DNA from: an uncultured virus (IMG/VR IMGVR_UViG_3300042914_003341)
Taxonomy: Duplodnaviria > Heunggongvirae > Uroviricota > Caudoviricetes
DNA: 64,000 nt
Strand: one strand, 5' to 3'
IMG/VR virus record: IMGVR_UViG_3300042914_003341
Shown here: piece by piece, positions 45 to 28,352 of the stretch
Layout of the letters: every line of letters begins with the position of its first letter
Position numbering within the stretch: the first letter of the stretch is position 1
Notes under the pieces: generated by a model
What the model saw: the letters and a program-made list of their open reading frames with translations, nothing else
The model's database searches: none
What the model was told of the DNA's origin: nothing
Position numbers and translations under genes: made by a program

Positions 45-344
45 TCATAGCAAGAAGGTATCTCCAAGCTCGGCAAGGAGAGAAAGACGACAATAACGCG
101 GGTTTCCGTTTATGAGAGAAAGATGACAATAACGCGGGTTTCCGTTTATAGGATCGCGCAGCACCGGCCAAAAACGCAAAACATCATCAACAGACTCAAC
201 CAGTTCATCAATCGATTCTGCAATGTCCCCGTTGTGATTGTGATGGTGCCCATTGAAGTTCGTGCTATCACCCCAGTATATACGCCATCTTGGCAACCGA
301 TTGCTAATATTGAAATCATCTAAGCGATCTAAGCGATTAGTCAT
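45..344 (-). CDS. small protein, C-terminal ELAD-type motif family
   Basis: Ends LLAELGDTFLL; ATGA-coupled to upstream ORF. Confidence 0.6.
   Translation of the reverse strand: MTNRLDRLDDFNISNRLPRWRIYWGDSTNFNGHHHNHNGDIAESIDELVESVDDVLRFWPVLRDPINGNPRYCHLSLINGNPRYCRLSLLAELGDTFLL
78..149. repeat. 2 x 36-bp tandem repeat (1 mismatch), in frame
   Basis: gagagaaagaYgacaataacgcgggtttccgtttat twice; encodes INGNPRYC(H/R)LSL x2. Confidence 0.9.
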
Positions 345-562
345 TGAGCACCTAACATGTCTGCCAGCTCAAAGAACAGATCAAACGCTGCATTGCCGCC
401 AAACCTTTTATAATCACAGACTGCGTATTGTATATGCCTCGTTACGAAACTGTTTTCTAAAGCATCTAAGACTCCGTGACGAGTAACATAAACAACCTGC
501 ACCATTATTCGATCGTAGTCTGGGAAGGCTTTATTTAACGCGAGGCTTGTAGTTCTAGTCAT
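341..562 (-). CDS. small protein, ELAD-motif family
   Basis: Ends LFFELADMLGAQ. Confidence 0.65.
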   Translation of the reverse strand: MTRTTSLALNKAFPDYDRIMVQVVYVTRHGVLDALENSFVTRHIQYAVCDYKRFGGNAAFDLFFELADMLGAQ

Positions 563-798
563 GACTCTGATGAATTGGTTTTTTGGTTGATGATAATGAA
601 CATGTCTCCCAGGTCTGCGAGCAAGGCGATATCCTCTGGCGCCTTGATCATCAGGCGCACATCAAAACAGCTTTTGAGCTTGTAGTACATGTAAGCATAG
701 TAGCAAACATCGTCTGCTGGATGGCCGATATGGTCTGGCCAGTCTTCCGGGACAAGGCCCATGTCTGTTGGTATGTTGTATAACTGTTGCCATTTCAT
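559..798 (-). CDS. small protein, ELAD-motif family
   Basis: LLADLGDMF near C-terminus. Confidence 0.6.
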   Translation of the reverse strand: MKWQQLYNIPTDMGLVPEDWPDHIGHPADDVCYYAYMYYKLKSCFDVRLMIKAPEDIALLADLGDMFIIINQKTNSSES

Positions 799-1697
799 TG
801 GCTTAGCAGCTTGGTCAATCTGTCATGAGTTGTTTGCGGCGAAAACCAGAACGTCGTTGTAGGTTCTTTGCAGTAATCCTCCAGAAGATCGACCACTGGC
901 TCATACTGCGAGCGTTGATAGGTATAAAACCTTGCGCCGGTCAGTGTGTCGACATGTTCTTCTAGACCTTTGCAACCAAACCTGGGATTGTTCTCTCGTT
1001 CTGCCGCCAGCTCCTGCTCGGACATGGTGACATCTGCCTTGATATGTTTGAACAACCTGCCACAACGCCTGTGTGTTGGCAGCGACAGCCATGGAGTTGC
1101 ACCTTCGTTTCTTCCATCTTCTGTGTGAGCAATGAGCTGTGCAGAGTTCATGCCACTTAGCTCCTTGTTTGATGAATATTGGCGTGCCCACTGAGCCACT
1201 GAGTTCCTCCTGGCATCACACATCCTCCAGCAGATGTTTGCCGCAACATCTTCGCAAGTTGGCAGCGAAAAAGCTCTGGCATCGAACGTCGCCATATCTC
1301 CGGATATCTTGCCAGAAGCTTGAGCAAACTTTGTCGTCATCATCGACGCCATCAGGGTCGAGAACTTCAAGATTCTTCCGCCGCTCAGTTGGTTCACCTT
1401 GCTGGGTTCGAACACCATGGTGAGTTCATCTGAGAATGTGTAAAGCAGCGCTGGAGCATAGACCTTCGCCATGGCCAAAGCTGTGTCAGTCATTGCTTTC
1501 TCAAAGGCTGGATGCCATGTGTCCTTGTTGCCTTGAGCAGTTGGATAGTTTTCCTTGACCCAAGTAGAGAACCCATGGCCATCCAAACGAACAACCGCCC
1601 ATTCAAGTGGAGTTAGTTGTTTTTTGCCGCGAAACCTCTCCTCGATGTCCTTGAAGTGGTTCCCAGAATCATTGATACCTCTGATGTTCATTTGCAT
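795..1697 (-). CDS. tRNA(His) guanylyltransferase-like protein (Thg1-like, 3'-5' polymerase)
   Basis: VVRLDGHGFS, YTFSDELT, FDARAF, ICWRMCDARRNS motifs typical of Thg1/TLP. Confidence 0.92.
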   Translation of the reverse strand: MQMNIRGINDSGNHFKDIEERFRGKKQLTPLEWAVVRLDGHGFSTWVKENYPTAQGNKDTWHPAFEKAMTDTALAMAKVYAPALLYTFSDELTMVFEPSKVNQLSGGRILKFSTLMASMMTTKFAQASGKISGDMATFDARAFSLPTCEDVAANICWRMCDARRNSVAQWARQYSSNKELSGMNSAQLIAHTEDGRNEGATPWLSLPTHRRCGRLFKHIKADVTMSEQELAAERENNPRFGCKGLEEHVDTLTGARFYTYQRSQYEPVVDLLEDYCKEPTTTFWFSPQTTHDRLTKLLSQ

Positions 1698-2179
1698 TTT
1701 GTCTCCGATGCGAAGATATCAGCCAACTCGCACATTGTAAAGAGAACAGCGCGATTGTAGCCCTCCACACACTCATATCCTTGGTCTTGATAATAGCAAT
1801 TGCTGTTTATTCGACTCGCTATTTTTAACACAATCATCGAAATCGACCCAACATGCTGTTTGGTATTCACGAATAATCCATAAGCCCGTGGGATAACCAC
1901 AAGTCTTGGTCGCTGTATCATTGCGACTGAACGAACCATAGCAGCAGCAGTCGTGGTTGTCAAGTGGGCTTGGAAATGATCTGCTAATTCAAACAAAACA
2001 TCTTTACTCTCGCAGTTAAAATAGCTTCGCCACTCAAGCCACAGGCCGGATCTATGCCAGCCAGCTAAAATGAATTGCCACAAGCCAACTTCTAATCTAA
2101 ACCCATCCAAACAACCAAACATGTTACGGTTTGTAAGTTCAGCAATTCTTGGAATGATGCTGCGCAAACGCGAATTCAT
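1688..2179 (-). CDS. ELAD-motif protein with two tandem units
   Basis: LFELADHF internally and MCELADIF at the end; start refined to ATGA overlap at 2179. Confidence 0.6.
   Translation of the reverse strand: MNSRLRSIIPRIAELTNRNMFGCLDGFRLEVGLWQFILAGWHRSGLWLEWRSYFNCESKDVLFELADHFQAHLTTTTAAAMVRSVAMIQRPRLVVIPRAYGLFVNTKQHVGSISMIVLKIASRINSNCYYQDQGYECVEGYNRAVLFTMCELADIFASETKCK
1935..1963 (-). promoter_or_regulatory. sigma70-type promoter inside ORF
   Basis: TTGACA-17-TATGGT with extended TG. Confidence 0.6.
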
Positions 2180-2409
2180 TCTATTGTCACCCCGTCCGAT
2201 GTGACCAACAGGCAATCAGCCAGATCAAAGAAAAAGTCGCATGCAGGGTCGTTGAAAATGCTTATATCCAGATAATTTATTTGTTTTCTATAGGCCGAAT
2301 CACATGTTCGCCAGAGCCATCCTTGCAAGTGAATGCATCTGAGAAAATCAAGAATCATTTGATCTGTCATGCGGTCAAAATCTGGAATCACATCACGCAA
2401 AGGTTTCAT
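2176..2409 (-). CDS. small protein, ELAD-motif family
   Basis: FFFDLADCLL; start refined by ATGA overlap. Confidence 0.65.
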   Translation of the reverse strand: MKPLRDVIPDFDRMTDQMILDFLRCIHLQGWLWRTCDSAYRKQINYLDISIFNDPACDFFFDLADCLLVTSDGVTIE

Positions 2410-2675
2410 AGACACTGCTCCACGCCAAAGACATCCGCCAGATCGAAAAAGATCCATCTATACATATCACGTTTCGAATCCCAGTCATAATCTTCGAAGG
2501 TATCACTGTTGTATGCTGCATGGCAAACCAGCCATATGAAATAACATGGCGACAATCCAACTGGGAACTGGAAATGGTCAATATTTGTATATTCATCAAG
2601 CCTTGATAAAACTGCATACAATTTTGAACTCATGTTCTCTCTCACTCTGTTGGCGCTCTGACTGCTAGAAAGCAA
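2406..2675 (-). CDS. small protein, ELAD-motif family
   Basis: IFFDLADVF; true start probably about 2645-2633. Confidence 0.6.
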   Translation of the reverse strand: MLSSSQSANRVRENMSSKLYAVLSRLDEYTNIDHFQFPVGLSPCYFIWLVCHAAYNSDTFEDYDWDSKRDMYRWIFFDLADVFGVEQCL

Positions 2676-2923
2676 TCGGCAAGATCAAAAAACATGTTTC
2701 TGCTCATTCGTTCGGATTTCTTGTTCCAAGAGCAATGCACTTTCGTTTCTATCATAAACGCCGTGCAACTGACGTCCCACAATATGCTTCCGAGACTGAT
2801 GTTTTCTAACGTGAAAAAGTCAAGAATGGCTCTGTCTGTAAACGAATCGAATTCTGGGATTGAATTCCTCAAAAACTGTTCCTGTAGACAGGCAAGATCG
2901 TAGTCCATGGATAGATCGCTCAT
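2642..2923 (-). CDS. small protein, ELAD-motif family
   Basis: MFFDLADCF; paralogue of 2176..2409 (LRxxIPxFDxxTDxxILDF). Confidence 0.65.
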   Translation of the reverse strand: MSDLSMDYDLACLQEQFLRNSIPEFDSFTDRAILDFFTLENISLGSILWDVSCTAFMIETKVHCSWNKKSERMSRNMFFDLADCFLAVRAPTE

Positions 2924-3195
2924 TGTGTCAGCTCCGTTGCTAGCGCCTCGAACAACTCAAACTCAAAGCCATTGACGACATATTGGAATTCATCGCAGTC
3001 AGCAATGCCGTGATCTTTTGCGAATGCTGCACAAACAAACCACCACAACCAAACCTTGAGACTATCATCTAGACCTATGATCTCACTAGAAACGCACTCC
3101 GATTCCTTGTCGATGCATTCTGTGAATCTAGGCAGTCTGGATTCGATCAGTACAGTTGTGGAAAAACCATATTGATGTTCTTCTTGGTCACTCAT
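2920..3195 (-). CDS. small hypothetical protein (degenerate motif)
   Basis: Coupled ORF; ends FELFEALATELTQ. Confidence 0.55.
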   Translation of the reverse strand: MSDQEEHQYGFSTTVLIESRLPRFTECIDKESECVSSEIIGLDDSLKVWLWWFVCAAFAKDHGIADCDEFQYVVNGFEFELFEALATELTQ

Positions 3196-3454
3196 ACGTG
3201 CTCTCCGGAAAACAAGGTGTTGAAACTATCATGTCAGCTAGCTCGAAGAAGACATCATGCTGTGTGCGATTTAAATGTCTTAAGAGGGTATCGCTAGGCA
3301 TTTCTCCTTCGTATGATTCGGCGCAGACTCGCCAGAGAATGTATGAATAATATTTTGTATGGTTGTTGCTTCGCCACTCCAGGTGCTGATCCGTGTATCT
3401 GTCAAGTTTTTTCAGAACATCGAAGATGTCTTTATCGAAGGGATTATTGCTCAT
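3188..3454 (-). CDS. small protein, ELAD-motif family
   Basis: VFFELADMI. Confidence 0.65.
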   Translation of the reverse strand: MSNNPFDKDIFDVLKKLDRYTDQHLEWRSNNHTKYYSYILWRVCAESYEGEMPSDTLLRHLNRTQHDVFFELADMIVSTPCFPESTYE

Positions 3455-3696
3455 TGTGATTCTGTCGCCGCGGTTATCGTATCAGCAATCATGAACAGTG
3501 TGTCTGATGGCAACTGGTCGGCTGTGTAATCGCTGTAGAAACCAACACCGTCAATGCCTCGGCGCACAGTCAGTCGAAGTAAAAATAGGCATTCCCTCAA
3601 TGACTCAGTGTGTGCAGGATCACCATTGACATTGAGGAAACTGAAGTTGTAGAACTTTGGAAGCAGATCTGACATCAAAGTTTTTTGTATTTTCAT
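3451..3696 (-). CDS. small protein, ELAD-motif family
   Basis: LFMIADTI. Confidence 0.55.
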   Translation of the reverse strand: MKIQKTLMSDLLPKFYNFSFLNVNGDPAHTESLRECLFLLRLTVRRGIDGVGFYSDYTADQLPSDTLFMIADTITAATESQ

Positions 3697-3702
3697 TGCT
3701 TT

Positions 3703-3942
3703 CTACTCCTCTTCAATGACTGTTGCCTCTTCCATTGCATCGATGAAGTCAATCATGTCTGTCAGTGCCGAGGTGAAACCTATTTCATTCTCAGCATACC
3801 CGGTTGACATGTCTCTTGGGTTCAGCGCATAGGAACAGAATAACCACAGCACGTCGCCAGCGTCAGTTCCAGCAACAATGCCAAACCACTGATCAAAAGC
3901 ATCGGTGATGAGTTTCAGAGTTTGTTTCAGATGGTCTGGCAT
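3703..3942 (-). CDS. small hypothetical protein (degenerate motif)
   Basis: ALTDMIDFI; fits gene packing. Confidence 0.55.
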   Translation of the reverse strand: MPDHLKQTLKLITDAFDQWFGIVAGTDAGDVLWLFCSYALNPRDMSTGYAENEIGFTSALTDMIDFIDAMEEATVIEEE

Positions 3943-4883: not shown

Positions 4884-4912
4884 GTTGTATCAGAGGCTGG
4901 GATGGTTGTCAA
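4884..4912 (-). promoter_or_regulatory. sigma70-type promoter (repeated cassette)
   Basis: TTGACAACCATCCCAGCCTCTGATACAAC; spacer identical to that at 15477-15505. Confidence 0.7.
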
Positions 4913-5214
4913 GTGTGACTTCTAGCGGCGTGAACGTGACGCATCCCGACCTGAATGGCATCACAAATCTCCACGAACAATTCCATGAACTCAATATCGA
5001 TGTACGTCTGCGCATTGATCCTGTTAGCAGAATAGATCAAATGATCACTGCAACAGACAACAAACGCATAACGTCCAACATCCTTTAAAAATATGTTTGA
5101 AGTGACTTCAAACTCATAATACACACGATTGGCGACTTGGCGCAGCTTTTCTTTTTTCTCAAAACGGTCAAGCAATTGCGTCACCAATCTCAGCAAATGC
5201 GGCGAAAATTTCAA
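4909..5214 (-). CDS. small protein, ELAD-motif family
   Basis: LFVEICDAI; true start probably downstream of ORF start. Confidence 0.55.
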   Translation of the reverse strand: MKFSPHLLRLVTQLLDRFEKKEKLRQVANRVYYEFEVTSNIFLKDVGRYAFVVCCSDHLIYSANRINAQTYIDIEFMELFVEICDAIQVGMRHVHAARSHT

Positions 5215-5416
5215 ACCGCGAAGTTTTGCACATCAACTCACGCCAGCCACACATGACCATAGATTGTCTGAAATAACATGCCGAAAACATGCCATTCAAT
5301 CTTGAATAAAAATAACCGACGTCCTGGTCTACTGGTTTGTAATAGCGCCAAGTGACACGTTGCAACGTCTCAACATATAGCCTAGTCCTGTCATTCATTG
5401 GCAGCGCCATCGTCAT
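5168..5416 (-). CDS. small protein, ELAD-motif family
   Basis: AFAEIGDAIA; start shortened to limit overlap. Confidence 0.55.
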   Translation of the reverse strand: MTMALPMNDRTRLYVETLQRVTWRYYKPVDQDVGYFYSRLNGMFSACYFRQSMVMCGWRELMCKTSRFEIFAAFAEIGDAIA

Positions 5417-5621
5417 TACTCCTTCCCGCAATGCAGTCTCCAACTTCACACATAAACTCCCAGTCGCGCATGCGTTGATAAACAAAGTGGTTCTGGAACG
5501 CACTTGCACACAAACACACAACAAGGTTCGAACCAATGTTCGAAGGATCTGTTGCCAAGTCCACGTGACCCAGGAACAACATGAATAATCCGTTTAGATG
5601 TTTAGTCGTTGTAGGGCTCAT
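5391..5621 (-). CDS. small protein, ELAD-motif family
   Basis: FMCEVGDCI. Confidence 0.55.
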   Translation of the reverse strand: MSPTTTKHLNGLFMLFLGHVDLATDPSNIGSNLVVCLCASAFQNHFVYQRMRDWEFMCEVGDCIAGRSNDDGAANE

Positions 5622-5656: not shown

Positions 5657-7333
5657 TCATCTGTTGCGTTTGCCATACAGGGTTCCTGCGTTGTAATTGT
5701 CAGAGGAAGAACCTACGAACACATAGTCCAGTTCAGTTGTCTCTAGCACATTAAGGGCATCGCGCAGAGTTGTCAAGATAGGTTTGCCTTTGATGTTGAA
5801 AGATGTGTTGAGGAGCACTGGGGGAACACCTTGATGGTTTGTCTTGAGAGAACCAAGCATTGCTGCAAATATCTCAGTGCCTTTGTGTTCTGGATTGACC
5901 GTCTGGAGCCTGCTGGATTTGTCTTGGTGAGTGATTGCCGCCAGAGGCTCTCTATAATCCATTCTGACGGTCGGAGCATGTGACATGAACCGGAAGCTGT
6001 CCGACTTGTTTGGATCGACTACAAAATATCCTGGAGCGTCCTGAGTCAGACAGAACGGAGCGAATGGTCTGTACGGTTCACGGAACTTGACCTTCTGGTT
6101 CAGAGTGTCTTTCATTCCAGGTATTGAAGGGAGGCAGACGATTGAACGGTGACCAAGGGCTCTGGGGCCTACCTCGGAACCTCTTGGATCGATCACACCA
6201 ACAATGGCACCATCTTTGACGATCCTGTTGACTAGGTCATTGACGGAGCAGTTGTCGACCTTGTAGATTGTTTGCGGCAAACTATTGTCAGAATCCAGAT
6301 TGTCAATCCAAGGCATGCCATTGAATGTCAGATCTTCACTCAGTGGTGTGATCATGTCATCATAGAACAGTTGACCCATTGACAGACCACTGTCGTCCGG
6401 GTTTGGTGGAATGAAGACAGGGACATCAAGAGTAGAATCAATGAGCATCTGGTTCAAGAGAACATTGAGAGCTACTCCTCCGGAAAGGCAGAGTGGTATT
6501 GATCTGTACTTGCCTGGAAGTTTGCGGTAGATACCTTCAACAAACACAGACCAGAACATGTCTTCTAGAACACGCTGAGAGTTCGCCGCCAGATCAAACG
6601 ATGATTGACCTGAGAGTGTGTTGATACTGCTCTGTGCAGGCAGTCCCATTTCTTTGAGCATCTTCTGCACGTTCCACGTTTGATCGGTGTAGAACTCTCT
6701 GAGCACCTCTTGGTAATGCGCACTGAATCTGCCGTATGCAGCTAGACCCATCAACTTCCCAGCAATTGAAAGATCATGTGGCAAACCACCCTTCTTTCCT
6801 TTGATCTCTGAGATTGGATAGCCGGTGAGCATGTAGGAATGCCCTAGGTTGATTGAAGATTTGTCGAGCAGAGTGAGTTTGCCGCCAAAAGCTTTCGTGG
6901 CATGATACACATTGAACACACCATCGTTCCCGCCGCCATCCATTGAAACGACAATGGCCTCATCAAACCCGCTCTGACCAAAGGAACATGCTGCGTGGGC
7001 CTTGTGATGATCAACAGAGACAATCTTACAACCAAGCCTCTCAAGTAATGGTTGATGAGTGTTACCATTCACGCCATAGAGAACAACATTGCTGACATCA
7101 TCTGCTGACACACCCCAGTGTTCCTTGGCAATTGCCGTGACATCTTTGAGGTCGTGGAGGAAGGTGTCATTGTCTTTGTCAAAAAGCATGTAGTGGCGTT
7201 GCTGTCTGAGACGCTCTAGCTCAATGGTTTTGATGGTGCGAGTCTTGCCGCCATCAGATGAGATCTGATAGGAAACAGAAGCGTTGTGACCTCCGTAGAT
7301 GGAGACTCTGACTGGTTTGGTGTGTTTCATCAT
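5657..7333 (-). CDS. carbamoyltransferase (NodU/CmcH/TobZ family)
   Basis: HHKAHAA, DGGG, GKLMGLAAYG, SGGVALN, GPRALGHRS, KFREPYRPFAP, LLNTSFN. Confidence 0.95.
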   Translation of the reverse strand: MMKHTKPVRVSIYGGHNASVSYQISSDGGKTRTIKTIELERLRQQRHYMLFDKDNDTFLHDLKDVTAIAKEHWGVSADDVSNVVLYGVNGNTHQPLLERLGCKIVSVDHHKAHAACSFGQSGFDEAIVVSMDGGGNDGVFNVYHATKAFGGKLTLLDKSSINLGHSYMLTGYPISEIKGKKGGLPHDLSIAGKLMGLAAYGRFSAHYQEVLREFYTDQTWNVQKMLKEMGLPAQSSINTLSGQSSFDLAANSQRVLEDMFWSVFVEGIYRKLPGKYRSIPLCLSGGVALNVLLNQMLIDSTLDVPVFIPPNPDDSGLSMGQLFYDDMITPLSEDLTFNGMPWIDNLDSDNSLPQTIYKVDNCSVNDLVNRIVKDGAIVGVIDPRGSEVGPRALGHRSIVCLPSIPGMKDTLNQKVKFREPYRPFAPFCLTQDAPGYFVVDPNKSDSFRFMSHAPTVRMDYREPLAAITHQDKSSRLQTVNPEHKGTEIFAAMLGSLKTNHQGVPPVLLNTSFNIKGKPILTTLRDALNVLETTELDYVFVGSSSDNYNAGTLYGKRNR

Positions 7334-8097: not shown

Positions 8098-8107
8098 TGT
8101 GACAACA

Positions 8108-8137
8108 AGGTTAGCACATCAGAAAATCAAGTGTCAA
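8108..8137 (-). promoter_or_regulatory. sigma70-type promoter
   Basis: TTGACA-18-TAACCT with extended TG, about 10 nt from ATG. Confidence 0.55.
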
Positions 8138-8605: not shown

Positions 8606-8615
8606 TGAAGAACGA

Positions 8616-17720: not shown

Positions 17721-17729
17721 GGCACCTGA

Positions 17730-17758
17730 ACCTTAGCTGAGTTCTGCTCTGGTGTCAA
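17730..17758 (-). promoter_or_regulatory. sigma70-type promoter, near-leaderless
   Basis: TTGACA-17-TAAGGT. Confidence 0.6.
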
Positions 17759-19733: not shown

Positions 19734-19734
19734 A

Positions 19735-19956: not shown

Positions 19957-19957
19957 G

Positions 19958-20533: not shown

Positions 20534-20541
20534 AGCTCACG

Positions 20542-20570
20542 AGTGTAGCACCATTTACGACTTGTGTCAA
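20542..20570 (-). promoter_or_regulatory. sigma70-type promoter, leaderless
   Basis: TTGACA-17-TACACT with extended TG; ATG 8 nt downstream. Confidence 0.65.
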
Positions 20571-20574
20571 ATCG

Positions 20575-21066
20575 TCACTGTTCGAACGACAACGCGCGGA
20601 CAACTTCACGACGTTCGAACTCATCCATGACTTCCATTAGTTCAACTGGAGAACATGAGCCATCGCCAGTCCAGTAAACATGTGGCCTCGATCTTTCATC
20701 CTCACGGCTGCTTGGAAAATAAATCAGGTTGTTGTTGCCGTCGAACTTCAGCTCAAAGTTGTCATCGTATGGCAGCTCCCAACGTACAACAAAATAGCTG
20801 TCATCCAGGAAAACATTCACAAGAAAACTATACAAACTGCTGTGAAAGTTAGCCTTGTCTGCAACATTGAATGCGGTGTTGAACATTGTGTACAGATGCA
20901 TCTCGGGCCACGTCAAGAGCCGAACTGCTAGCGCGCCTAGATCTGTCCCATCATGTTTCTCTAGAAAAGAAAGCATTGCATCGCGAGACTCCTTGAGCTC
21001 CTGTGCGGCTTCGTCATGGTGGCGGCACGTTGCGGCGATAGCATCAGAGAATGTGGGCGTTGTCAT
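20575..21066 (-). CDS. hypothetical protein
   Basis: 163-aa ORF directly after a promoter. Confidence 0.65.
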   Translation of the reverse strand: MTTPTFSDAIAATCRHHDEAAQELKESRDAMLSFLEKHDGTDLGALAVRLLTWPEMHLYTMFNTAFNVADKANFHSSLYSFLVNVFLDDSYFVVRWELPYDDNFELKFDGNNNLIYFPSSREDERSRPHVYWTGDGSCSPVELMEVMDEFERREVVRALSFEQ

Positions 21067-21072
21067 GCAGTC

Positions 21073-21101
21073 ATCTTATCACACGATGAATGCGGCGTCA
21101 A
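21073..21101 (-). promoter_or_regulatory. sigma70-type promoter, leaderless
   Basis: TTGACG-17-TAAGAT with extended TG; ATG 6 nt downstream. Confidence 0.65.
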
Positions 21102-21328
21102 GTAACAGCAGAGCAACAAGCAAACATGTCAGCCAATTCAAAGAAGCTGTTGTTTCTTTCGAAGAAACGGAGATCAAAATGCCTACACAATACATCTATC
21201 ACATGTGTTGTTGAATAAATGTTCGCACTCAAAACGCGCGGCGGGTGGTAGATGTCATAGTTGATTTTGTAGCTCAACCACGGCATTCTTTTGGTATTAT
21301 ATGGATTAATGATACCGGCATAGTTCAT
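21098..21328 (-). CDS. small protein, ELAD-motif family
   Basis: SFFELADMF. Confidence 0.65.
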   Translation of the reverse strand: MNYAGIINPYNTKRMPWLSYKINYDIYHPPRVLSANIYSTTHVIDVLCRHFDLRFFERNNSFFELADMFACCSAVT

Positions 21329-21570
21329 AGAAATACATCTGCCAGTTCCAAAAACTCAAAGATGGTACAACGAACATCGTTCCGTTGAAAATACTTTCCA
21401 ATACTCTCTGCCAGAATTGCCGGTTCACCATCTTTAATAGAACTAAAAGTTCTGTTAGGATGATATATGATAAAATAAATTTCTGTATCATGAGCTGCAA
21501 TCCAGGCTGCTCTTTCTCCGCTGCCGAATATATCTCTCCAAAGAATGTAGGTGTATTTACGCTGATTCAT
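21325..21570 (-). CDS. small protein, ELAD-motif family
   Basis: EFLELADVF. Confidence 0.65.
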   Translation of the reverse strand: MNQRKYTYILWRDIFGSGERAAWIAAHDTEIYFIIYHPNRTFSSIKDGEPAILAESIGKYFQRNDVRCTIFEFLELADVFL

Positions 21571-21814
21571 AGGAATGTGTTATCAGCTCATCAGCGATCA
21601 TACAGATCAAGTCAGTCTCTGTCCAGTAATTGTAGTTGGCATAGCCATTCCGATAACAGCCCGAGAGAACGTCTTCTCTAGCAGCATCGGAAAGAACCTG
21701 TGTGATGTTTAGTCTGAACTCGTCTAGAGATGAGCAGCCATCATTTTCGAAAATCACACTATCAATCTGATATATGGTACCGTCAACTCGACTCCTGCTG
21801 TTGTAATTCAACAT
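21557..21814 (-). CDS. small protein, ELAD-motif family
   Basis: ICMIADEL. Confidence 0.55.
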   Translation of the reverse strand: MLNYNSRSRVDGTIYQIDSVIFENDGCSSLDEFRLNITQVLSDAAREDVLSGCYRNGYANYNYWTETDLICMIADELITHSYESA

Positions 21815-22041
21815 AGGTCACTTCCAGGAGTTTGCGGCAAAACCATGTCTGCCAGTTCAATCATGAACTCATATCGTTCAATGAAACCATCGAACCGGTA
21901 ACTGGACGAAATGAGTACCGTTTTTGGCTCAAGATGGCCGGTTGCCCTGAATGAATCATCAATTCGATACCGCAAATAATCCAGAAAATATGTGTTGAGT
22001 TGCTTTGCTATGTTTTTACGGATTCTGAGTTCTACTGTCAT
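21808..22041 (-). CDS. small protein, ELAD-motif family
   Basis: FMIELADMV. Confidence 0.65.
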   Translation of the reverse strand: MTVELRIRKNIAKQLNTYFLDYLRYRIDDSFRATGHLEPKTVLISSSYRFDGFIERYEFMIELADMVLPQTPGSDLC

Positions 22042-22274
22042 GGCTGGGTTAGCGCATCCATGATACCAACAAGCATCTCTTCTTGCTCATCCATGCAATA
22101 GTCGCCATCGATGATGCCCTTGACTTCTAATATATGGTGCTGGAACATTTCTAATGTTACCCTATACAAAAACTCAGAACTGCCGATTGGGATTGCATCG
22201 TACAAGGAGGTTATGAAGTGCTTGCGCACCAGATTGTAAGGATCTTTTTTTGGTTCGTCATCATCACCGTTCAT
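22038..22274 (-). CDS. small protein, ELAD-motif family (degenerate)
   Basis: LVGIMDAL; start refined. Confidence 0.55.
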   Translation of the reverse strand: MNGDDDEPKKDPYNLVRKHFITSLYDAIPIGSSEFLYRVTLEMFQHHILEVKGIIDGDYCMDEQEEMLVGIMDALTQP

Positions 22275-22494
22275 CGAACATATCTCCCAGCTCAACAAAC
22301 AATCCAAAGTGCGCATTGAAGTGCCGCACGGCATTTTTATTACTCAACACCGTGTGAGTCCATCCAGTGTAATAATCTGTTATGTGACGAAGCATAGAAT
22401 CAAGGCAACGGTGGTGATGGTAGTCCGTCTCTTCGAACAGCACCACAATTCCGCGGCGAATTCTGTAGCCGACACCGTAATAATCGAGTTTCAT
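22264..22494 (-). CDS. small protein, ELAD-motif family
   Basis: LFVELGDMF; ATGA start. Confidence 0.6.
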   Translation of the reverse strand: MKLDYYGVGYRIRRGIVVLFEETDYHHHRCLDSMLRHITDYYTGWTHTVLSNKNAVRHFNAHFGLFVELGDMFDER

Positions 22495-22718
22495 TTTTGC
22501 AACATGTCCATCAGATCGATGATCCACCAACTATCACCCAGTTGACTATGTTTACCCGCAATCCACTCTGCGTTTGGTTTGCTGAGTGACAAACACAGCC
22601 CACTATACATTCCATTCTCAAATTCAGAAATACCAAGTGCATAGTTGAATTGACTGTCAATCTCACCAATTCTTTGCTGTGAGCTAACAACCACAGCTAG
22701 GGCGAGATAATCATCCAT
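22491..22718 (-). CDS. small protein, ELAD-motif family
   Basis: IIDLMDML; start uncertain. Confidence 0.5.
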   Translation of the reverse strand: MDDYLALAVVVSSQQRIGEIDSQFNYALGISEFENGMYSGLCLSLSKPNAEWIAGKHSQLGDSWWIIDLMDMLQK

Positions 22719-23266
22719 ACTGACTTTGACTCTGGGGCAATCGTCACAGGGTGTTTGAGTTTGTTGTTGCACTTGATCTGCTCAAGCATCCTTTGCAGGA
22801 GGTCAGCACCGCGCTGCATCCCAAGATACACCTCGCGACCTTTGAACTTGCAAACAACCTTGACCTCATGGCCTTCCTCTACGAACTCCTTGACCTTTGA
22901 TGCCTTGACGTTGAGGTCGTTGTCGTCAATGTTCGGCCTGACAATGATCTCTTTTTGTTCCAGAGGCTTCGAACGGCCCTTCTGTGCCTTCTTCTGGTCG
23001 AACAGGAACTTGCCATAGTCAATGATCTTGCAAAGGCTGCGAGGACGTGTCTGACTCGCTGAGTTGATCTCAACCAGATCCAAACCTGCTTCATTCGCCA
23101 TTCCCAGCGCAACTTGCTTCGAGATGTTCTGGTGGTGGTTTCCATCTTGGTCGACAACATCAAGGTATTGCTCCTGGATGTAACCATTGGTTCGATGACT
23201 GCGACCACCAGTGGAAGCCGATGGACGAACTGGAAGGCGAGAACCGTTTGCTGTTTTGTTTCCCAT
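22697..23266 (-). CDS. infC: translation initiation factor IF-3
   Basis: AGLDLVEI, CKIIDYGKFLFDQKK, KEIIVRPNIDDNDL, KVVCKFKGRE. Confidence 0.93.
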   Translation of the reverse strand: MGNKTANGSRLPVRPSASTGGRSHRTNGYIQEQYLDVVDQDGNHHQNISKQVALGMANEAGLDLVEINSASQTRPRSLCKIIDYGKFLFDQKKAQKGRSKPLEQKEIIVRPNIDDNDLNVKASKVKEFVEEGHEVKVVCKFKGREVYLGMQRGADLLQRMLEQIKCNNKLKHPVTIAPESKSVWMIISP

Positions 23267-23318
23267 ATGTGGTGTTTTTTACTTACTCGTTCCTAAAGGT
23301 TTGTGTGCGTGACGATTG

Positions 23319-23347
23319 ATAGTATCAGGTGCTTGAATGGCTGTCAA
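23319..23347 (-). promoter_or_regulatory. sigma70-type promoter for IF-3
   Basis: TTGACA-17-TACTAT with extended TG. Confidence 0.7.
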
Positions 23348-23353
23348 GGGTTG

Positions 23354-24436
23354 CTAGCAGGACACGAGAGTTTTTGCCGCGGAAATGGTGCTCAGAGGTA
23401 CTTTGAACGTTGGGCGTTTGAAAGATTCAGATTTGTCAGAGAAATATACCGGTTCTGAGGCAGAACCCAGCTCATCCTTCTCCCAGGTGACTTCAATCAC
23501 TGGTCCTTTGACCTCAGTTGCTATCCGACGTTGCTCATCGACGTTTGCTGACCATTGCACCGGTTTTGGCATGAAGACATCGCCATTCCTGTTTGGTGTG
23601 AGTTTGTTGAAGACCAGGGCAAGATGATCCTTGACCATGGTCGTCTGGAGTTCATTCAGCGCTGTTGGGTTTGCCATCTCAAAGAAACCTTGGAGCCAGT
23701 ACACGAACTGATCTGGTGTGATTGGCTGAGGTCTATTCTCTGGATGTTTTGCCGCCATTCTGTATGGATGATCAGCTCCCTTTGTCTTGCTGACCGCATT
23801 GGATTGATCAAACAAGTTCACGAACTTATGATCTGGGAACTTGTGCAGGATCTTGTCGACGTACTTGCCACGCTTGTAGTCGAATCCTGTCTTTGTCACA
23901 GTTTTATCAGCCATGTCCTTCAAGGCTCCAGGCTCCCCGGTGATCTTCTTTGTCACATGATTCCATGTGAACTTGGAGATCTCAACTGGAAATGACCCCA
24001 GGAGCTTTGACAGATCTGAGAACTCTGTCACAATCACTTGATATTTGATCCGATGAGCACCACTCAAGACAGATGATCGCCAGTCGATATGGCCGTCATA
24101 AACCCATTTGATCCCCGGGTTGCGATAGCCATAATCATCCGAATCGTCTGAGTATCGATCGCCCCGAGTTGCCTCTTTGACGTCAAAACCGGCTTCTCTG
24201 AGGGTGAACTCTAGTTGTGTCTTTGTGATCGTCGTGCCAATCAAGAAGATGTCAATGTCTGACGCTGGCTGCTGACGATACCATTCACGTGGAGCACCTC
24301 CAGCAACAACAGCTTCACGTGTCCATGGCAAATGACTGAGTGTTGACATCAGGTGATCTGTCGCAGCTTTCTGCGCCTTGATCAACTCTGCTGAGTCTTT
24401 TTGTTTGTGATAGTTTTTTAGTTCTGCTTTGTTCAC
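23354..24436 (-). CDS. Pol-beta-superfamily nucleotidyltransferase (CCA/poly(A)-like head) with extra C-terminal domain
   Basis: VAGGAPR...SDIDIF; GTG start overlapping upstream TGA; C-terminal TPDQFVYWLQGFFE segment. Confidence 0.75.
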   Translation of the reverse strand: MNKAELKNYHKQKDSAELIKAQKAATDHLMSTLSHLPWTREAVVAGGAPREWYRQQPASDIDIFLIGTTITKTQLEFTLREAGFDVKEATRGDRYSDDSDDYGYRNPGIKWVYDGHIDWRSSVLSGAHRIKYQVIVTEFSDLSKLLGSFPVEISKFTWNHVTKKITGEPGALKDMADKTVTKTGFDYKRGKYVDKILHKFPDHKFVNLFDQSNAVSKTKGADHPYRMAAKHPENRPQPITPDQFVYWLQGFFEMANPTALNELQTTMVKDHLALVFNKLTPNRNGDVFMPKPVQWSANVDEQRRIATEVKGPVIEVTWEKDELGSASEPVYFSDKSESFKRPTFKVPLSTISAAKTLVSC

Positions 24437-24867
24437 GTGCTTGTTGTTCCTTTTTCTTCTTCCTTCATCCTCTTCGCATCGAACTTGTCTTGATCTGCTT
24501 TGATAATAGCTTTGAACTCTTGCATCTGCTCCAGCAGGTTCCTGCCGCGAGCAACCAACATCCCTGCAAGATTTTTGTCGAGGAGCCATGGCTGGTGATA
24601 TTTCCAGGCAAAAGCGCTGTCAAACCCACAATCATGGCACCATAGCCTCTGGTGCCGACTGTACAATCCAGTGGTTTCTACCGGCTCAAAGTAATCATCA
24701 CCTCTGCGCATGTCCTTGTGACCACAGCGAGCCATGGCAAGCAACGCAGCGGCAATGGCCTCATACTGTGAATATGAAGAGTATCCATGACGTGCTAAAT
24801 CTACAGCATATCGATAAGCTTCTGTTTCCTTGTCAGCCTTCTTGCCGTCAGTGTTGTAGTCGCTCAT
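24433..24867 (-). CDS. hypothetical protein, possible Zn ribbon
   Basis: CGH...CHDCG. Confidence 0.6.
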   Translation of the reverse strand: MSDYNTDGKKADKETEAYRYAVDLARHGYSSYSQYEAIAAALLAMARCGHKDMRRGDDYFEPVETTGLYSRHQRLWCHDCGFDSAFAWKYHQPWLLDKNLAGMLVARGRNLLEQMQEFKAIIKADQDKFDAKRMKEEEKGTTST

Positions 24868-24872
24868 TGTCT

Positions 24873-25148
24873 TTATTCCGCCTTTGTTGTTGATTCAGGC
24901 TCAACCCAGCTACCGGTCTGGGACCATCCACACTTGATGCAATACCAGTAGGTCGTATAATCTGTTCTGTGCCCGTCATAGTCTTCCTCAGTGATTGTGT
25001 CAAGATCATCATGAGTGCACTCTAATGCCTTCCTGTGAATTTCTAGAGTGGTATTTAATTCACTGATCTGATCTTCGTAGTATTGGATCTGATCAAGTAA
25101 TTTCTCAGTGACGTCAGAAGATTTTGGCTTTGGCTCTATGTGATGCAT
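24873..25148 (-). CDS. hypothetical protein, coiled coil plus Zn ribbon
   Basis: CTH...CIKCG. Confidence 0.65.
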   Translation of the reverse strand: MHHIEPKPKSSDVTEKLLDQIQYYEDQISELNTTLEIHRKALECTHDDLDTITEEDYDGHRTDYTTYWYCIKCGWSQTGSWVEPESTTKAE

Positions 25149-25432
25149 GTGTAGGACTTTATCACATCGACTGGGTTGGTGTCAAGGCCACAGACTGTGT
25201 CGGCCAGACAAACAAACAATTCATATTTATTGAGTGCAACTACCTCGAACAAATAACCGAAATTGCTATCAAGGTCGGACATAGAATCGCTACCCGCAAC
25301 CATTAATATCAATCGCATGAACCGATGAGCAGGGGAATGTTCTGGGGAACGTTTTGGATAGTCGTCGGACGAGTACAGTCCACACTCTTCCTTGATTCGA
25401 TTGAAAATCTCTCTGATCCGGTAGTCATTCAT
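25136..25432 (-). CDS. small protein, ELAD-motif family
   Basis: LFVCLADTV. Confidence 0.6.
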   Translation of the reverse strand: MNDYRIREIFNRIKEECGLYSSDDYPKRSPEHSPAHRFMRLILMVAGSDSMSDLDSNFGYLFEVVALNKYELFVCLADTVCGLDTNPVDVIKSYTCIT

Positions 25433-25703
25433 TGGATGTTGTTTCTTTTGCGAACAGATCGGCTAGATCAAAGGTCATGCCAATGCGTGGGTTGGCTTTT
25501 GTTAGACCACTCAGAGTCTGCGCGCGATATGTTCTATCAATCTGAGAAAGCCAGTGACCAATGCCCCACGGCACTAAGATTTCTTCTTGCCCACATGTCG
25601 CGCGCAGAGCATGGATTTCTTCCGTTTTTTCTCCAACGCTATCGAATCTTGCGTGTATACTGTCCAAATGCAATCTTTTTGCTACTAAAGACATTTCATT
25701 CAT
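25425..25703 (-). CDS. small protein, ELAD-motif family
   Basis: MTFDLADLF. Confidence 0.65.
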   Translation of the reverse strand: MNEMSLVAKRLHLDSIHARFDSVGEKTEEIHALRATCGQEEILVPWGIGHWLSQIDRTYRAQTLSGLTKANPRIGMTFDLADLFAKETTSNE

Positions 25704-25939
25704 TGGATACTGCCCGTCACAAACATGTCTGCCAGATCAAATGTAAGTCCTACGACGCCACTCGTCAAACCAAGCAGTCTTTGTTTTTGAACCGCATCAT
25801 CGATATGATACATCCAAAAAGCAAATCCCCAGGCATCGTCAATGCCGCGACCATCTGGGCCGCGAAGACGCGCATCGGAGATCAATCTTAGTTTTTCTGT
25901 AACTGATATGCAACACTTCTGATGGCGTTTGTCATTCAT
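25700..25939 (-). CDS. small protein, ELAD-motif family
   Basis: LTFDLADMF. Confidence 0.65.
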   Translation of the reverse strand: MNDKRHQKCCISVTEKLRLISDARLRGPDGRGIDDAWGFAFWMYHIDDAVQKQRLLGLTSGVVGLTFDLADMFVTGSIQ

Positions 25940-26226
25940 TGGACACTTCCCGCTGCAAACAGATCGCAGAGCTCAATGAAAAACCGGTTCATATGCAGTA
26001 GATTCATGTCTTCCGCCGTGATCACTTTCCAAAAATTATGATCAACGAACTGATTGATTGGTAGATTAAACTTTCTATCTGTTTGCTGGTAGATATAGTC
26101 AGCCACCATGAACATTCTTGACTCGACACGGACGCCATCCTTGCTGGAATAATACTTCCATGGGAGCCTGACTGTCTTTGACGTCAGGAGTTGTCGTTTC
26201 ATCAGGTCTGCTTTGGTTATTGGCAT
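25936..26226 (-). CDS. small protein, ELAD-motif family
   Basis: FFIELCDLF. Confidence 0.65.
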   Translation of the reverse strand: MPITKADLMKRQLLTSKTVRLPWKYYSSKDGVRVESRMFMVADYIYQQTDRKFNLPINQFVDHNFWKVITAEDMNLLHMNRFFIELCDLFAAGSVQ

Positions 26227-26462
26227 TCTAATCTTTCATGCGCGTTGACTATGAAGAAGTCGCAGAGGTCAACAAACTTGAACTCTCTTTCCTCCAGGCG
26301 TTCTTTTGTGAAGGATGAGCCGCCATGGCCACTAAGAGCTCTGGCAAACCAACAGCCAAAGATGTTTGGCGCAAACAATCCCAGTTCCGAGGCTTTCATG
26401 AAGCCAGGAACACCTTGGATGGCACGTATCTTTTCTGTTCTGATCATAGAGTTCACTGACAT
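26217..26462 (-). CDS. small protein, ELAD-motif family
   Basis: KFVDLCDFF. Confidence 0.6.
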   Translation of the reverse strand: MSVNSMIRTEKIRAIQGVPGFMKASELGLFAPNIFGCWFARALSGHGGSSFTKERLEEREFKFVDLCDFFIVNAHERLECQ

Positions 26463-26686
26463 ACTGGTTGAAGCATGTCCCCGATGTCGGCAAGCTCACC
26501 GAGTGTATCATGGCCGCGATAATTCATGAATTCGTTGCCGTTCCGATGCGCGTAGGATGGATTGAAAAATGCAGCACACCTGATCGTGGTAAACATCGCG
26601 AACAGAAAGCGGCACGATAGATTGCGTGCTACGCGCTCAGCAGTGAGTTTGGTGTCTATTTGGCGACAGAAGCCGATTGTCAACAT
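26453..26686 (-). CDS. small protein, ELAD-motif family
   Basis: ELADIGDML; AGGAG upstream. Confidence 0.6.
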   Translation of the reverse strand: MLTIGFCRQIDTKLTAERVARNLSCRFLFAMFTTIRCAAFFNPSYAHRNGNEFMNYRGHDTLGELADIGDMLQPVCQ

Positions 26687-26714
26687 GCTGCTCCTTGTTG
26701 TGTGAATAAACTAT

Positions 26715-26788
26715 TGGATCACAGTGAGGGAGTTGAACCCCCATTCAACGAGTCAAAGTCGTTTGTCCTACCATTGGACGAACTGTGA
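26715..26788 (-). tRNA. tRNA-Gln(TTG)
   Basis: Cloverleaf, loop CTTTGAC, CCA encoded. Confidence 0.9.
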
Positions 26789-26798
26789 ATGGTAACGG

Positions 26799-26875
26799 TG
26801 GTGGGTCTGCTGAGATTTGAACTCAGATTTCACAGATTAAGAGTCTGGTGTAATAAACCGTTATACTACAAACCC
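26799..26875 (-). tRNA. tRNA-Lys(CTT)
   Basis: Loop CTCTTAA, CCA encoded. Confidence 0.9.
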
Positions 26876-26901
26876 AAATATGAACGAAACGAACGAAACA
26901 G

Positions 26902-26973
26902 TAGCCCCAGAAGGAATCGGACCTCCGACCTCCAAGGCGTAAGCTTGGGGTTCTGCCATTGAACTATAGGGCC
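26902..26973 (-). tRNA. tRNA-Val(TAC)
   Basis: Loop CTTACGC; T-loop TCCGATT; no CCA. Confidence 0.8.
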
Positions 26974-26992
26974 AGATGAAGAAAAAAAGGAG

Positions 26993-27189
26993 AGCGGGTC
27001 CAAGGAATTGAACCTTGATAGTCCATCGATGGAGGCAAGAGATTTTGGCCGCGAAACATGATCAGTGCTCGGAACAAAAACTCTTGTAATCAACCATCTA
27101 GCTGAATGCAGATCATTGATCAGATGACCTACACCGGCAGACCCTGCCAGATTGGACTCTGGCGGCATTAGCCAAAATGCGTGACCCGC
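26993..27189 (-). ncRNA. giant tRNA-like RNA (Gly-type acceptor, about 125-nt variable region)
   Basis: GCGGGTC/GACCCGC-T, D arm, GCCAG-AGTCCAAT-CTGGC arm, T arm CAAGG-TTCAATT-CCTTG. Confidence 0.75.
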
Positions 27190-27211
27190 GTGAAAAGAAA
27201 AACAAAGGTAG

Positions 27212-27327
27212 CTGGGACGATCGGAGTCGAACCGATAGAGGGGCCTCGCGGATACCCTGTCAGGTTTCGCCGCAAAACTATTCTTGCAGCTACCGACTGA
27301 CTTCTCTGTCCATTTGAATACATCCCA
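27212..27327 (-). ncRNA. tRNA-like RNA with about 33-nt anticodon loop and long variable arm
   Basis: TGGGATG/CGTCCCA, GTCAG/CTGAC stem, T arm ATCGG-TTCGACT-CCGAT. Confidence 0.7.
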
Positions 27328-27332
27328 GATAG

Positions 27333-27403
27333 AGCGTGTGACGAGACTCGAACTCGTAATCCGAGCTTGGAAGGCAGGGCTTTTACCATTAAATTACACA
27401 CGC
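27333..27403 (-). tRNA. tRNA-Gly(TCC)
   Basis: Loop CTTCCAA, U73; two anticodon-stem mismatches. Confidence 0.8.
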
Positions 27404-27458
27404 AAAGAAACCAAGGCAGTTAAGTCAAAGCTAAGGAAGAAGAAGAAAGAGATTGCTG

Positions 27459-27722
27459 TCAGAAAGTTCTCGTGACACATCCTCGCATGAACCCACAGCA
27501 GGCGTTCATCCGCACCTGACGACCGGCAGGGTTTGTTGCAGCGATGGTAAACTCCGTGTCATACCCCTTCCCGCAGAGATGAACGTAAGAAGTATCAACA
27601 ACCCTGACGTTGGAGAACCCCATGTCCTGGAAATGCTGAACTGCTGTGTCCTGGCTTGAGCAGGCAGTGGTAGCAGTTGAAGACAGAACCAGGAGCGCAA
27701 GAAGGCGTAGAGAGTTTCGCAT
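27459..27722 (-). CDS. small lipoprotein
   Basis: MRNSLRLLALLVLSSTATTA-C signal peptide and lipobox; Cys-rich C-terminus. Confidence 0.75.
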   Translation of the reverse strand: MRNSLRLLALLVLSSTATTACSSQDTAVQHFQDMGFSNVRVVDTSYVHLCGKGYDTEFTIAATNPAGRQVRMNACCGFMRGCVTRTF

Positions 27723-27760
27723 CGCTTTATATACCTTTCGTGAATGTTGTTGACCGACAG

Positions 27761-27846
27761 TAGGGCTGGAGGGATTTGCACCCCCAGTTGCGGTTTTGCC
27801 GCGTCCGATTTTGAGCCGGAAGTGTCTGCTGTTCCACCACAACCCC
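27761..27846 (-). tRNA. tRNA-Leu(CAA)
   Basis: Loop CTCAAAA, long variable arm. Confidence 0.88.
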
Positions 27847-27861
27847 AAACTTAACCAAACA

Positions 27862-28024
27862 TGGAGCGTGCCGCAGGAGTTGAACCCGCACAGGGAGGCC
27901 ACCCCTGTCTCTTGCCAGTGTTTCGATGGGCGAAACACCTCTGACCATCTTTGACTGAGAGAGTCATAGCTCTTTGGAGGGCGACTCCAGCTATTGGTAC
28001 TTCTCAGTCAGCAAGATAGCACGC
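27862..28024 (-). ncRNA. giant tRNA-like RNA (Gly-type acceptor, about 70-nt D arm)
   Basis: GCGTGCT/GGCACGC-T-CCA, T arm GCGGG-TTCAACT-CCTGC, long hairpin TGACTGAGA/TCTCAGTCA. Confidence 0.75.
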
Positions 28025-28060
28025 ATATTTTCTATCTCACGTTGCCTTGGAGACACTCAG

Positions 28061-28089
28061 ACTCTAGCACGAGGCTTCAAGGCTGTCAA
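28061..28089 (-). promoter_or_regulatory. sigma70-type promoter (RNA island)
   Basis: TTGACA-17-TAGAGT with extended TG. Confidence 0.7.
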
Positions 28090-28097
28090 GTGCAACG

Positions 28098-28352
28098 TCA
28101 AAGCTCTGAGTTCGCTGGCGCAATAATATCGCACAACTCGGTCAGGAACATGAGACGCTGCGGCCAATCATGGCTTGGCTCAGAAAACGAAGGATAAACT
28201 CTTTTAAGGAGGTGTGCATTGTGGCGGTCGGCGCTGCCAAAGCAATAATCAATCATGTCGGAAAGAAATGTCTCATTCAAAGGTATGGACGCCGCACCAA
28301 TTCGCTGGCCCAATTTCATGATCGAATCTTGACGTGCAGTGATGCAATCCAT
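28098..28352 (-). CDS. small protein, ELAD-motif family
   Basis: FLTELCDII; AGGAG upstream. Confidence 0.65.
   Translation of the reverse strand: MDCITARQDSIMKLGQRIGAASIPLNETFLSDMIDYCFGSADRHNAHLLKRVYPSFSEPSHDWPQRLMFLTELCDIIAPANSEL

Follow-up and report, generated by a model that had tools for sequence, protein, structure and literature searches.

Expansion of one small domain within a large phage genome is already known as a kind of event, and the closest described case is a zinc ribbon of Bacillus phage G. This lineage-specific expansion numbers about 35 copies and is called 'unprecedented' by Iyer et al. (2021; PMC7824862), who treat its function as unknown and propose a binding or regulatory role. 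The subject of this report is a family of small proteins with a common C-terminal motif (the ELAD motif), encoded on the minus strand between positions 45 and 28352 of a 64,000-nucleotide stretch of DNA, hereafter the window, from an uncultured large phage (IMG/VR record IMGVR_UViG_3300042914_003341). As in phage G, one large phage genome carries tens of copies of a small nonenzymatic domain. Unlike the zinc ribbon, the domain is predicted to be all-helical, has at least 51 copies in 28 kb, and lies outside Pfam and PHROGs. An anchored alignment of the family contains no CxxC pairs, so it is not a zinc ribbon. The family is new, larger than the phage G expansion, helical, and unrelated to it.

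Large eukaryotic DNA viruses also carry multigene families, such as MGF110, MGF360, and MGF505 of African swine fever virus and the host-range families of poxviruses, whose members are thought to bind different host targets. Like them, the ELAD family is clustered on one strand, and its paralogues are old, diverged, and individually conserved in related viruses, but it is phage-borne, its proteins are much smaller, and it has no sequence or fold relation to them. The letters of the motif also recall helix-turn-helix domains of the Cro/XRE type, in which helix 2 commonly reads '...ELA..' and precedes the recognition helix. The short letters and the small residue after Leu are the same, and ELADMF occurs in one example of this type, in loci L025 and L064. 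However, the family proteins end 3 to 20 residues after the Asp of the motif, with no recognition helix following, and none of 61 small proteins of the window matches a helix-turn-helix family in Pfam. Finally, gp33, gp55, and gp43 of phage T4 have flexible, hydrophobic-acidic tails at the extreme C terminus that bind the clamp and thus dock on one hub. Both cases involve a short hydrophobic-acidic C-terminal element common to otherwise different phage proteins. The T4 tails are the model for the adaptor reading discussed below. They differ from the ELAD element, which is predicted to form a packed helix and is separated from the C terminus by a varying number of residues. We saw no clamp gene in the window.

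We consider it probable that the ELAD genes are a multigene family specific to one phage lineage, in which a single small, acidic, soluble, all-helical protein is present in at least 51 copies that are old and have diverged strongly, and that these proteins are early binders. The ELAD segment (h-x-h-h-h-[ED]-[LIV]-[AGCS]-D-h-h-h, where h is hydrophobic) would form the final helix of a helical hairpin that is conserved at the C terminus, and would pack against a helix with an aromatic residue (W/Y, often as W-x-x-C). It would then belong to the fold itself and not be a tag that could be detached. The heads, as we call the N-terminal parts, would differ between subfamilies and be conserved within the orthologues of each copy. 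The genes would be expressed in long translationally coupled operons, behind enzyme-like first genes and from host-type promoters, probably early. Each copy might bind or inhibit a separate host or phage target in stoichiometric fashion, on a common scaffold, and a shared contact may come from the pair of acidic residues that are spaced by one turn on the last helix.

The minus-strand gene table for positions 45 to 28352 contains 71 genes, after exclusion of spurious open reading frames (ORFs) over tRNA genes and correction of three overlapping gene starts. Strict members have [ED][LIVM][AGSC]D with hydrophobic flanks (h-x-[ED]-[LIVM]-[AGSC]-D-x-h) no more than 32 amino acids from the stop codon. 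This motif is present in 40 of the 71 genes. Degenerate forms, for example MIAD, TIAD, SIGD, DLMD, or ELA with three residues inserted before D, are found in 11 more, and the resulting 51 members occupy 13.1 kb, or 46% of the region. An earlier note on this DNA, made from the sequence alone, had proposed about 50 small minus-strand ORFs of mostly 60 to 100 amino acids with a shared C-terminal motif, and the count bears this out: 49 of the 51 members have 60 to 101 amino acids, and the remaining two have 163 and 187. Most members (41 of 51) are net negative, with a median charge of -4. None has a clear membrane segment, although one is borderline (1.69 against a cut-off of 1.6).

The position-specific profile of the motif is h(-8) x h h(F/L) h [ED] [LIV] [AGCS] D [MVACL] [FLI] h. 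The near-invariant Asp remarked on earlier is found in 50 of 50 members, which is partly a product of how membership is defined, and member 2920-3195 has Glu instead. The residue three positions before it is acidic in 42 of 50, and a small residue adjoins the Asp. The invariant Asp and the earlier acidic residue lie on the same face of an otherwise hydrophobic helix, and their conservation exceeds what structure would require by itself. Codons of the motif vary (GAT in 21 and GAC in 19 cases for Asp, and at least six codons at the Leu position), in agreement with the earlier view that conservation is at the level of protein. DNA repeats across members are limited to the motif stretch of about 23 nucleotides and are 74% to 87% identical.

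The motif is far more frequent than in shuffled proteins. In 1000 residue shuffles of an earlier set of 41 small proteins, of which 21 have the motif, the core motif appeared in the last 30 amino acids 0.6 times on average and at most four times. A 14-column hidden Markov model (HMM) of the motif was searched against all six frames of the window, as had been suggested, and it recovered all 40 strict C-terminal motifs, on the minus strand and inside 45-28364. Its 12 other matches are all weak, with independent E values (iE) of 2.2 or worse; nine are on the minus strand, one of them beyond 28.4 kb, and three are on the plus strand, all beyond 28.4 kb. Matches with iE of 2.2 or better are confined to stop-to-stop ORFs of at most 194 amino acids, consistent with the earlier statement that no enzyme ends with the motif. 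The rest of the window has no member, and no protein longer than 200 amino acids carries the motif. Among 28 control loci classed as unrelated (L069 to L096, about 3,400 ORFs), the strict pattern occurs in one ORF.

Sequence comparison with related uncultured phages indicates that the family genes are real genes. Orthologues of ten different copies were found, all on contigs of uncultured phages. The 17 orthologue pairs for these ten copies have 182 of 204 identical residues in the motif (89%), 822 of 1102 in the heads (75%), and 58 of 110 in the tails that follow the motif (53%). In two orthologues, the tail is simply replaced. Gene 10370-10675, the only member with a relative at the DNA level, is 91.6% identical in nucleotides to its counterpart in locus L069, with a ratio of nonsynonymous to synonymous change (pN/pS) of 0.27. 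Because orthologous heads are 75% identical, they appear to be old, individually conserved domains rather than a fast-changing library. Such individual conservation suggests a separate job for each copy, most simply the stoichiometric binding of a host or phage macromolecule early in infection.

Family genes are never first in their operons. An enzyme-like gene leads and is followed by a chain of overlapping stops and starts. The coupled runs described earlier are evident: 25 of the 51 starts share four nucleotides with the upstream stop (ATGA, GTGA, or TTGA), and the number rises to 41 when overlaps of any length are counted. Sequences resembling Shine-Dalgarno elements are scarce (23 of 70 genes). 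The sequence TTGACA-N14-TGnTAnnnT occurs 15 times in the window, where 0.06 occurrences are expected, and 14 of these are on the gene strand. Two further promoter sites have a 15-nucleotide spacer, and nine sites are inside the region. At 7 of 16 sites the -10 element ends 7 to 11 nucleotides before a start codon (starts 8097, 10105, 13751, 20533, 25148, 32299, and 40823), and for start 44921 it ends 16 nucleotides before. The first genes therefore look leaderless or nearly so. Promoters of this host type (sigma-70, extended -10) suggest that expression is probably early.

The part of each protein outside the motif had been considered mostly unalignable by eye, and this view is not well supported. 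With the motif cut off, phmmer still links 21 members into seven clusters, and 19 of these members are in six clusters that contain family proteins only. At full length, BLASTP and phmmer link neighbours and some non-neighbours. Subfamily B has three common blocks (LPxFDxxT, LWxVC, and FFDLAD). Of 50 members, 21 have an aromatic element, hh[WY]xh, 24 to 44 residues before the Asp, whereas shuffles contained it 6.1 times on average and 12 times at most, and Trp and Cys peak at positions -36 to -29 relative to the Asp.

Two AlphaFold models, built with the alignment of paralogues, are of moderate to low confidence. The model of 341-562 has four helices, among them one at residues 39-54 followed by the motif-bearing helix at 58-71 (predicted local distance difference test (pLDDT) 72, predicted template modelling score (pTM) 0.40). 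The model of 15900-16082 has three, including helices at residues 21-41 and, with the motif, 47-58 (pLDDT 64, pTM 0.30). In both, the motif lies in the last helix, a short loop after the aromatic helix. The top-scored blocks are the motif and aromatic helices in the 15900-16082 model, and the motif helix but not the aromatic one in the 341-562 model. The motif is hydrophobic at 9 of its 12 positions and so needs burial. A common C-terminal helical hairpin is thus likely, and we think it improbable that the motif is a loose tag carried by unrelated heads. The earlier question of whether the heads share a fold receives a partial answer: both models are all-helical, but comparisons between subfamilies with hhalign are not significant, and a common fold for all heads is unproven.

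Several points weigh against the favoured reading of early binders on one scaffold. HMM iteration, like hhalign, leaves the subfamilies unmerged; the heads of different subfamilies are not significantly alike, so a single fold for all 51 members is something that we infer. The packing of motif helix against aromatic helix is read from the secondary structure and pLDDT of the two models, and is predicted at their level of confidence. The Asp is never Asn or, except in one copy, Glu. This strictness exceeds usual structural need and hints at a specific shared contact, as docking on a hub would likewise predict. Binding is a proposed function, and early expression, although probable, is deduced from the type of promoter.

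The strongest competing explanation is that the family is an adaptor library, in which the conserved helix docks every copy on one host or phage hub (polymerase, clamp, protease, chaperone, or ribosome) and the heads bring cargo or specificity. We regard this as rather unlikely, although it accounts for several observations. Among both paralogues and orthologues the motif is the most conserved block, the Asp is present throughout and is preceded in most members by an acidic residue and adjoined by a small one, the heads of different subfamilies are not demonstrably related, and the tails after the motif are free to vary. The window also encodes candidate hubs, for example a strongly basic protein (net charge about +40) at 11997-13115. 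However, the motif helix is hydrophobic on most faces, and it falls in a predicted helix with a top pLDDT block, directly after a co-conserved aromatic helix and not in a flexible tail. Its varying distance from the C terminus is also unlike that of end-anchored tails. The earlier proposal of a constant docking helix on variable heads thus stands insofar as the motif is the best conserved block, but the second, aromatic helix and the location of the motif in the last predicted helix speak against it. The more specific version, in which all 51 proteins dock by one invariant acidic-hydrophobic helix on the same machine of host or phage, and every conserved head brings in a substrate or site of its own, is less probable again. 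If an adaptor library were real, one phage could redirect a single hub in dozens of ways at an early stage of infection.

Alternately, the hairpin might be an oligomerisation module that pairs copies with themselves or with others into four-helix bundles, and so yields combinatorial complexes. At about 40 residues, and with many of its hydrophobic positions exposed, a hairpin of two helices is small for a stable monomer, and gene 1688-2179 holds two units in one frame, as if paired. It is, however, the one fused pair among 51 members, and no fused forms were found among longer proteins, which is weak evidence; we doubt this explanation more than the adaptor library. Least credible, and in our view scarcely worth retaining, is that the motif acts at the level of DNA or RNA, for instance in ribosome binding or in coupling to the next gene, or that the ORFs are not genes, because codons vary at all motif positions, pN/pS is low, the proteins are conserved in orthologues, the motif is specific to strand and frame, and Gly is present in only about a quarter of members, even though its codon is GGA in 10 of the 14 rows listed (one of which is not the motif) versus 25% in the genes of the region (p 3e-4), and GGAGA lies 10 to 14 nucleotides before the next start in eight cases.

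Other readings of the element were dropped. It is C-terminal and Asp often replaces Glu, unlike a capsid-targeting or protease site; it is acidic, unlike a membrane-targeting helix; and its distance to the end varies, unlike a terminal degron. A linear docking motif in a flexible tail does not agree with the predictions, in which the motif is a helix with top pLDDT. Among the defence-system families of PADLOC-DB, no profile matches the family significantly.

In agreement with the earlier note, the family is not a named one, and no known full-length domain family matches it in the libraries searched. Searches of the 61 small proteins against Pfam and PHROGs, of 47 members against NCBIfam and PADLOC, and of PDB sequence profiles gave no significant match; one of the 47 members weakly matches a two-transmembrane (2TM) effector model in PADLOC-DB (E 0.0065). 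The family has no match among GenBank phages. A profile search of 1.84 billion representative proteins returned eight matches (five of the family's own proteins, two close variants, and one repeat artefact), and because only 5 of the 47 own sequences passed, the profile is weak and could miss distant relatives. In structure searches, Foldseek found nothing in the PDB, BFVD gave one row with an E value of 9.6, and the best VIA-align Z scores (4.8 and 3.9) are generic helical matches. In the ESM Atlas, a poxvirus VLTF3 cluster (0.91) and unnamed clusters (0.82 or less) are within the range reached by shuffled proteins and were rejected.

In IMG/VR, a DNA pattern for F-x-E-L-A-D-M-F matches at least 68 loci, with no arrays among the matches listed. 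A small ORF recurring in five of these loci looks noncoding and was set aside. The orthologue alignment A4 has no counterpart in IMG/VR, metagenome contigs contributed one 4.5-kb locus only, and genome contigs yielded 27 distant carbamoyltransferase loci without arrays, which were reused as controls. The motif strings appear in no relevant paper in the literature searched. Within the limited reach of the profile, these searches indicate that the family is restricted to one phage lineage.

The individual members begin at the start of the window, and the array may continue beyond it: the start of a further minus-strand gene that leaves the window (1-48) has an ATGA overlap with the stop of the first member. 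That member, 45-344 (99 amino acids, LAELGDTF), has a 36-nucleotide tandem duplication at 78-149, which is in perfect frame, is 97% identical, and doubles 12 residues just N-terminal to the motif. The next two members are 341-562 (73 amino acids, FFELADML; orthologue P0010, 95%) and 559-798 (79 amino acids, LADLGDMF; orthologues P0012 and P0013). The two-unit gene at 1688-2179 encodes 163 amino acids in an ORF that is open to 2215, with MCELADIF and an internal LFELADHF, and looks like neighbouring genes fused through loss of a stop. A promoter with the N14 spacer lies within it (1935-1963), just past the motif of the first unit; this and all other promoters given here are on the minus strand.

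Subfamily B follows, with 2176-2415 (79 amino acids, FFDLADCL), 2406-2645 (79, FFDLADVF), 2642-2923 (93, FFDLADCF; orthologues P0015 and P0017), and 3188-3454 (88, FFELADMI; orthologue P0019, 64%). Between the last two is the degenerate member 2920-3195 (91 amino acids), which has a subfamily B head and ends in FELFEALA, with Glu for Asp; the variant is kept in orthologues P0021, P0022, and P0026. Two more degenerate members are 3451-3696 (81 amino acids, LFMIADTI; orthologues P0020 and P0023) and 3703-3942 (79 amino acids, SALTDMI), the latter with an upstream VLWLFC helix.

Members 4909-5187 (about 88 to 92 amino acids, FVEICDAI), 5168-5410 (about 76 to 82 after trimming of the start, FAEIGDAI), and 5391-5621 (76, MCEVGDCI; orthologue P0011, 72%) are the last genes of an operon with an N15 promoter at 8108-8137, whose -10 ends 11 nucleotides before start 8097. 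The N14 promoter at 10112-10140, 7 nucleotides before start 10105, heads an operon with 8127-8369 (80 amino acids, WSDLADML), 8366-8605 (79, FIELADMF), 8616-8900 (94, FVDLADVI), 8897-9163 (88, FADLSDML; orthologues P0024, P0025, and P0027), and 9573-9848 (91, MSDLSDML). Adjacent to these are the degenerate member 10102-10377 (91 amino acids), in which three residues are inserted (ELA-YIC-DLLL), and 10370-10675 (101 amino acids, FTDVADVL), the member compared with L069 above.

The operon with members 15483-19968 is headed by the N14 promoter at 20542-20570, whose -10 ends 9 nucleotides before start 20533, in leaderless-like fashion. Its run of members begins, in window order, with 15483-15722 (79 amino acids, FAEIADEL) and subfamily D, comprising 15715-15903 (62, IAELGDCF), 15900-16082 (60, VSELGDCF), 16079-16276 (65, MTELGDLL), and 16467-16664 (65, VCELGDVF). 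Subfamily A is represented by 16859-17053 (64 amino acids, FAEIADAI; orthologue P0006, 91%), 19515-19733 (72, IAELSDYF; orthologue P0005 with a replaced tail), 19735-19968 (77, FLEICDMF), and, by its head, the degenerate 16273-16470 (65, LTTIADVM). The other members of the run are the degenerate 17040-17324 (94 amino acids, LSSIGDML), 17733-18032 (99, LFEIADAL), 18029-18307 (92 from a GTG at 18307, LADVGDML), the long member 18304-18867 (187, with LAEIGDML at its extreme C terminus), 18864-19070 (68, FSDLADIL), the degenerate 19067-19273 (68, with three residues inserted, ELA-GLR-DMF), and 19270-19518 (82, FVDVADVF). In some members, for example 15715-15903, 16467-16664, 18304-18867, and 22264-22494, GGAGA within the motif might serve a second use as a ribosome-binding site.

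A sigma-70-type promoter with the N14 spacer at 23319-23347 precedes a homologue of initiation factor 3 (IF3; 22697-23266) and the run 21098-22694. This run contains 21098-21328 (76 amino acids, FFELADMF), which has the top motif-HMM score, 21325-21570 (81, FLELADVF), 21808-22041 (77, MIELADMV), and 22264-22494 (76, FVELGDMF), together with the degenerate members 21557-21814 (85, ICMIADEL), 22038-22274 (78, LVGIMDAL), and 22491-22694 (67, IIDLMDML). The run 25136-26686 consists of the degenerate 25136-25432 (98 amino acids, FVCLADTV), 25425-25703 (92, TFDLADLF), 25700-25939 (79, TFDLADMF), 25936-26226 (96, FIELCDLF), 26217-26462 (81, FVDLCDFF), and 26453-26686 (77, with two overlapping motifs in ELADIGDML). 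An N15 promoter is located at 25156-25185, its -10 ending 8 nucleotides before start 25148. The last member, 28098-28352 (84 amino acids, LTELCDII), is isolated among tRNA genes, and just downstream of it an N14 promoter (28061-28089) points toward the tRNA genes and the run 25136-26686.

Two N14 promoters in the region are associated with other genes: 15477-15505 precedes the gene of a Ro60-like protein, and the -10 of 13761-13789 ends 10 nucleotides before start 13751. The former lies in a 28-nucleotide stretch (15481-15508) that is 100% identical to 4888-4915 and overlaps the promoter; weaker copies of the stretch are at 1939-1966 and 23323-23350.

The phage comes from lake water, and identical DNA is present in several sequencing runs labelled lake water metagenome. 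No RNA run is among the runs listed with this DNA. Contigs from four lake-water runs show zero differences from 8101-28100 among the pieces listed, so there is no population variation to analyse. Proteins of the window are recorded on contigs of up to 151,347 bp, and those of a relative on contigs of up to 307,894 bp.

The window also encodes 14 tRNAs (minus strand, 26.7 to 31.7 kb), a Thg1-like enzyme, a carbamoyltransferase, a RadA/KaiC-like ATPase, a HAD 'Swiss-army-knife' RNA-repair domain (HAD_SAK_2), a Ro60/TROVE protein, and a nucleotidyltransferase in addition to the IF3 homologue. The cluster for RNA repair and translation (Ro60, Thg1, HAD_SAK_2, nucleotidyltransferase, and the 14 tRNAs) is interleaved with the small-protein family. 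The Ro60/TROVE homologue (13770-15401) shares 40% identity with its counterpart in Myxococcus phage Mx1 and about 24% with those of many actinobacteriophages. It has no relative in IMG/VR, and both it and the RadA-like protein have distant matches only among GenBank phages. The 372-amino-acid basic protein at 11997-13115 (minus strand) sits between the RadA-like ATPase and the RNA-repair HAD domain, has a PHROG of unknown function as its sole match, and may bind nucleic acid. Among GenBank phages, megablast with 5657-13115 revealed no relative, and tblastn with this protein and with a 1196-amino-acid protein of the window found nothing. At 36129-39074 (minus strand) are four tandem paralogues of 242 to 249 amino acids, each ending in ...CVFDP...; for one of them there is a weak match (E 1e-4) to the PHROG of the gp0.7 protein kinase of T7, and Pfam gives no match.

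Large phages repeatedly show big expansions of small, uncatalogued proteins, which belong to the unexplained 'dark matter' of their genomes. With its sharp motif, its single invariant Asp, and its orthologues in related phages, the ELAD family lends itself to clean experiments. Should its copies prove to bind different host proteins, they would amount to a set of small inhibitors, ready for use, against a freshwater host. Should they all dock on one hub, they would reveal a new route by which a phage can redirect host machinery.

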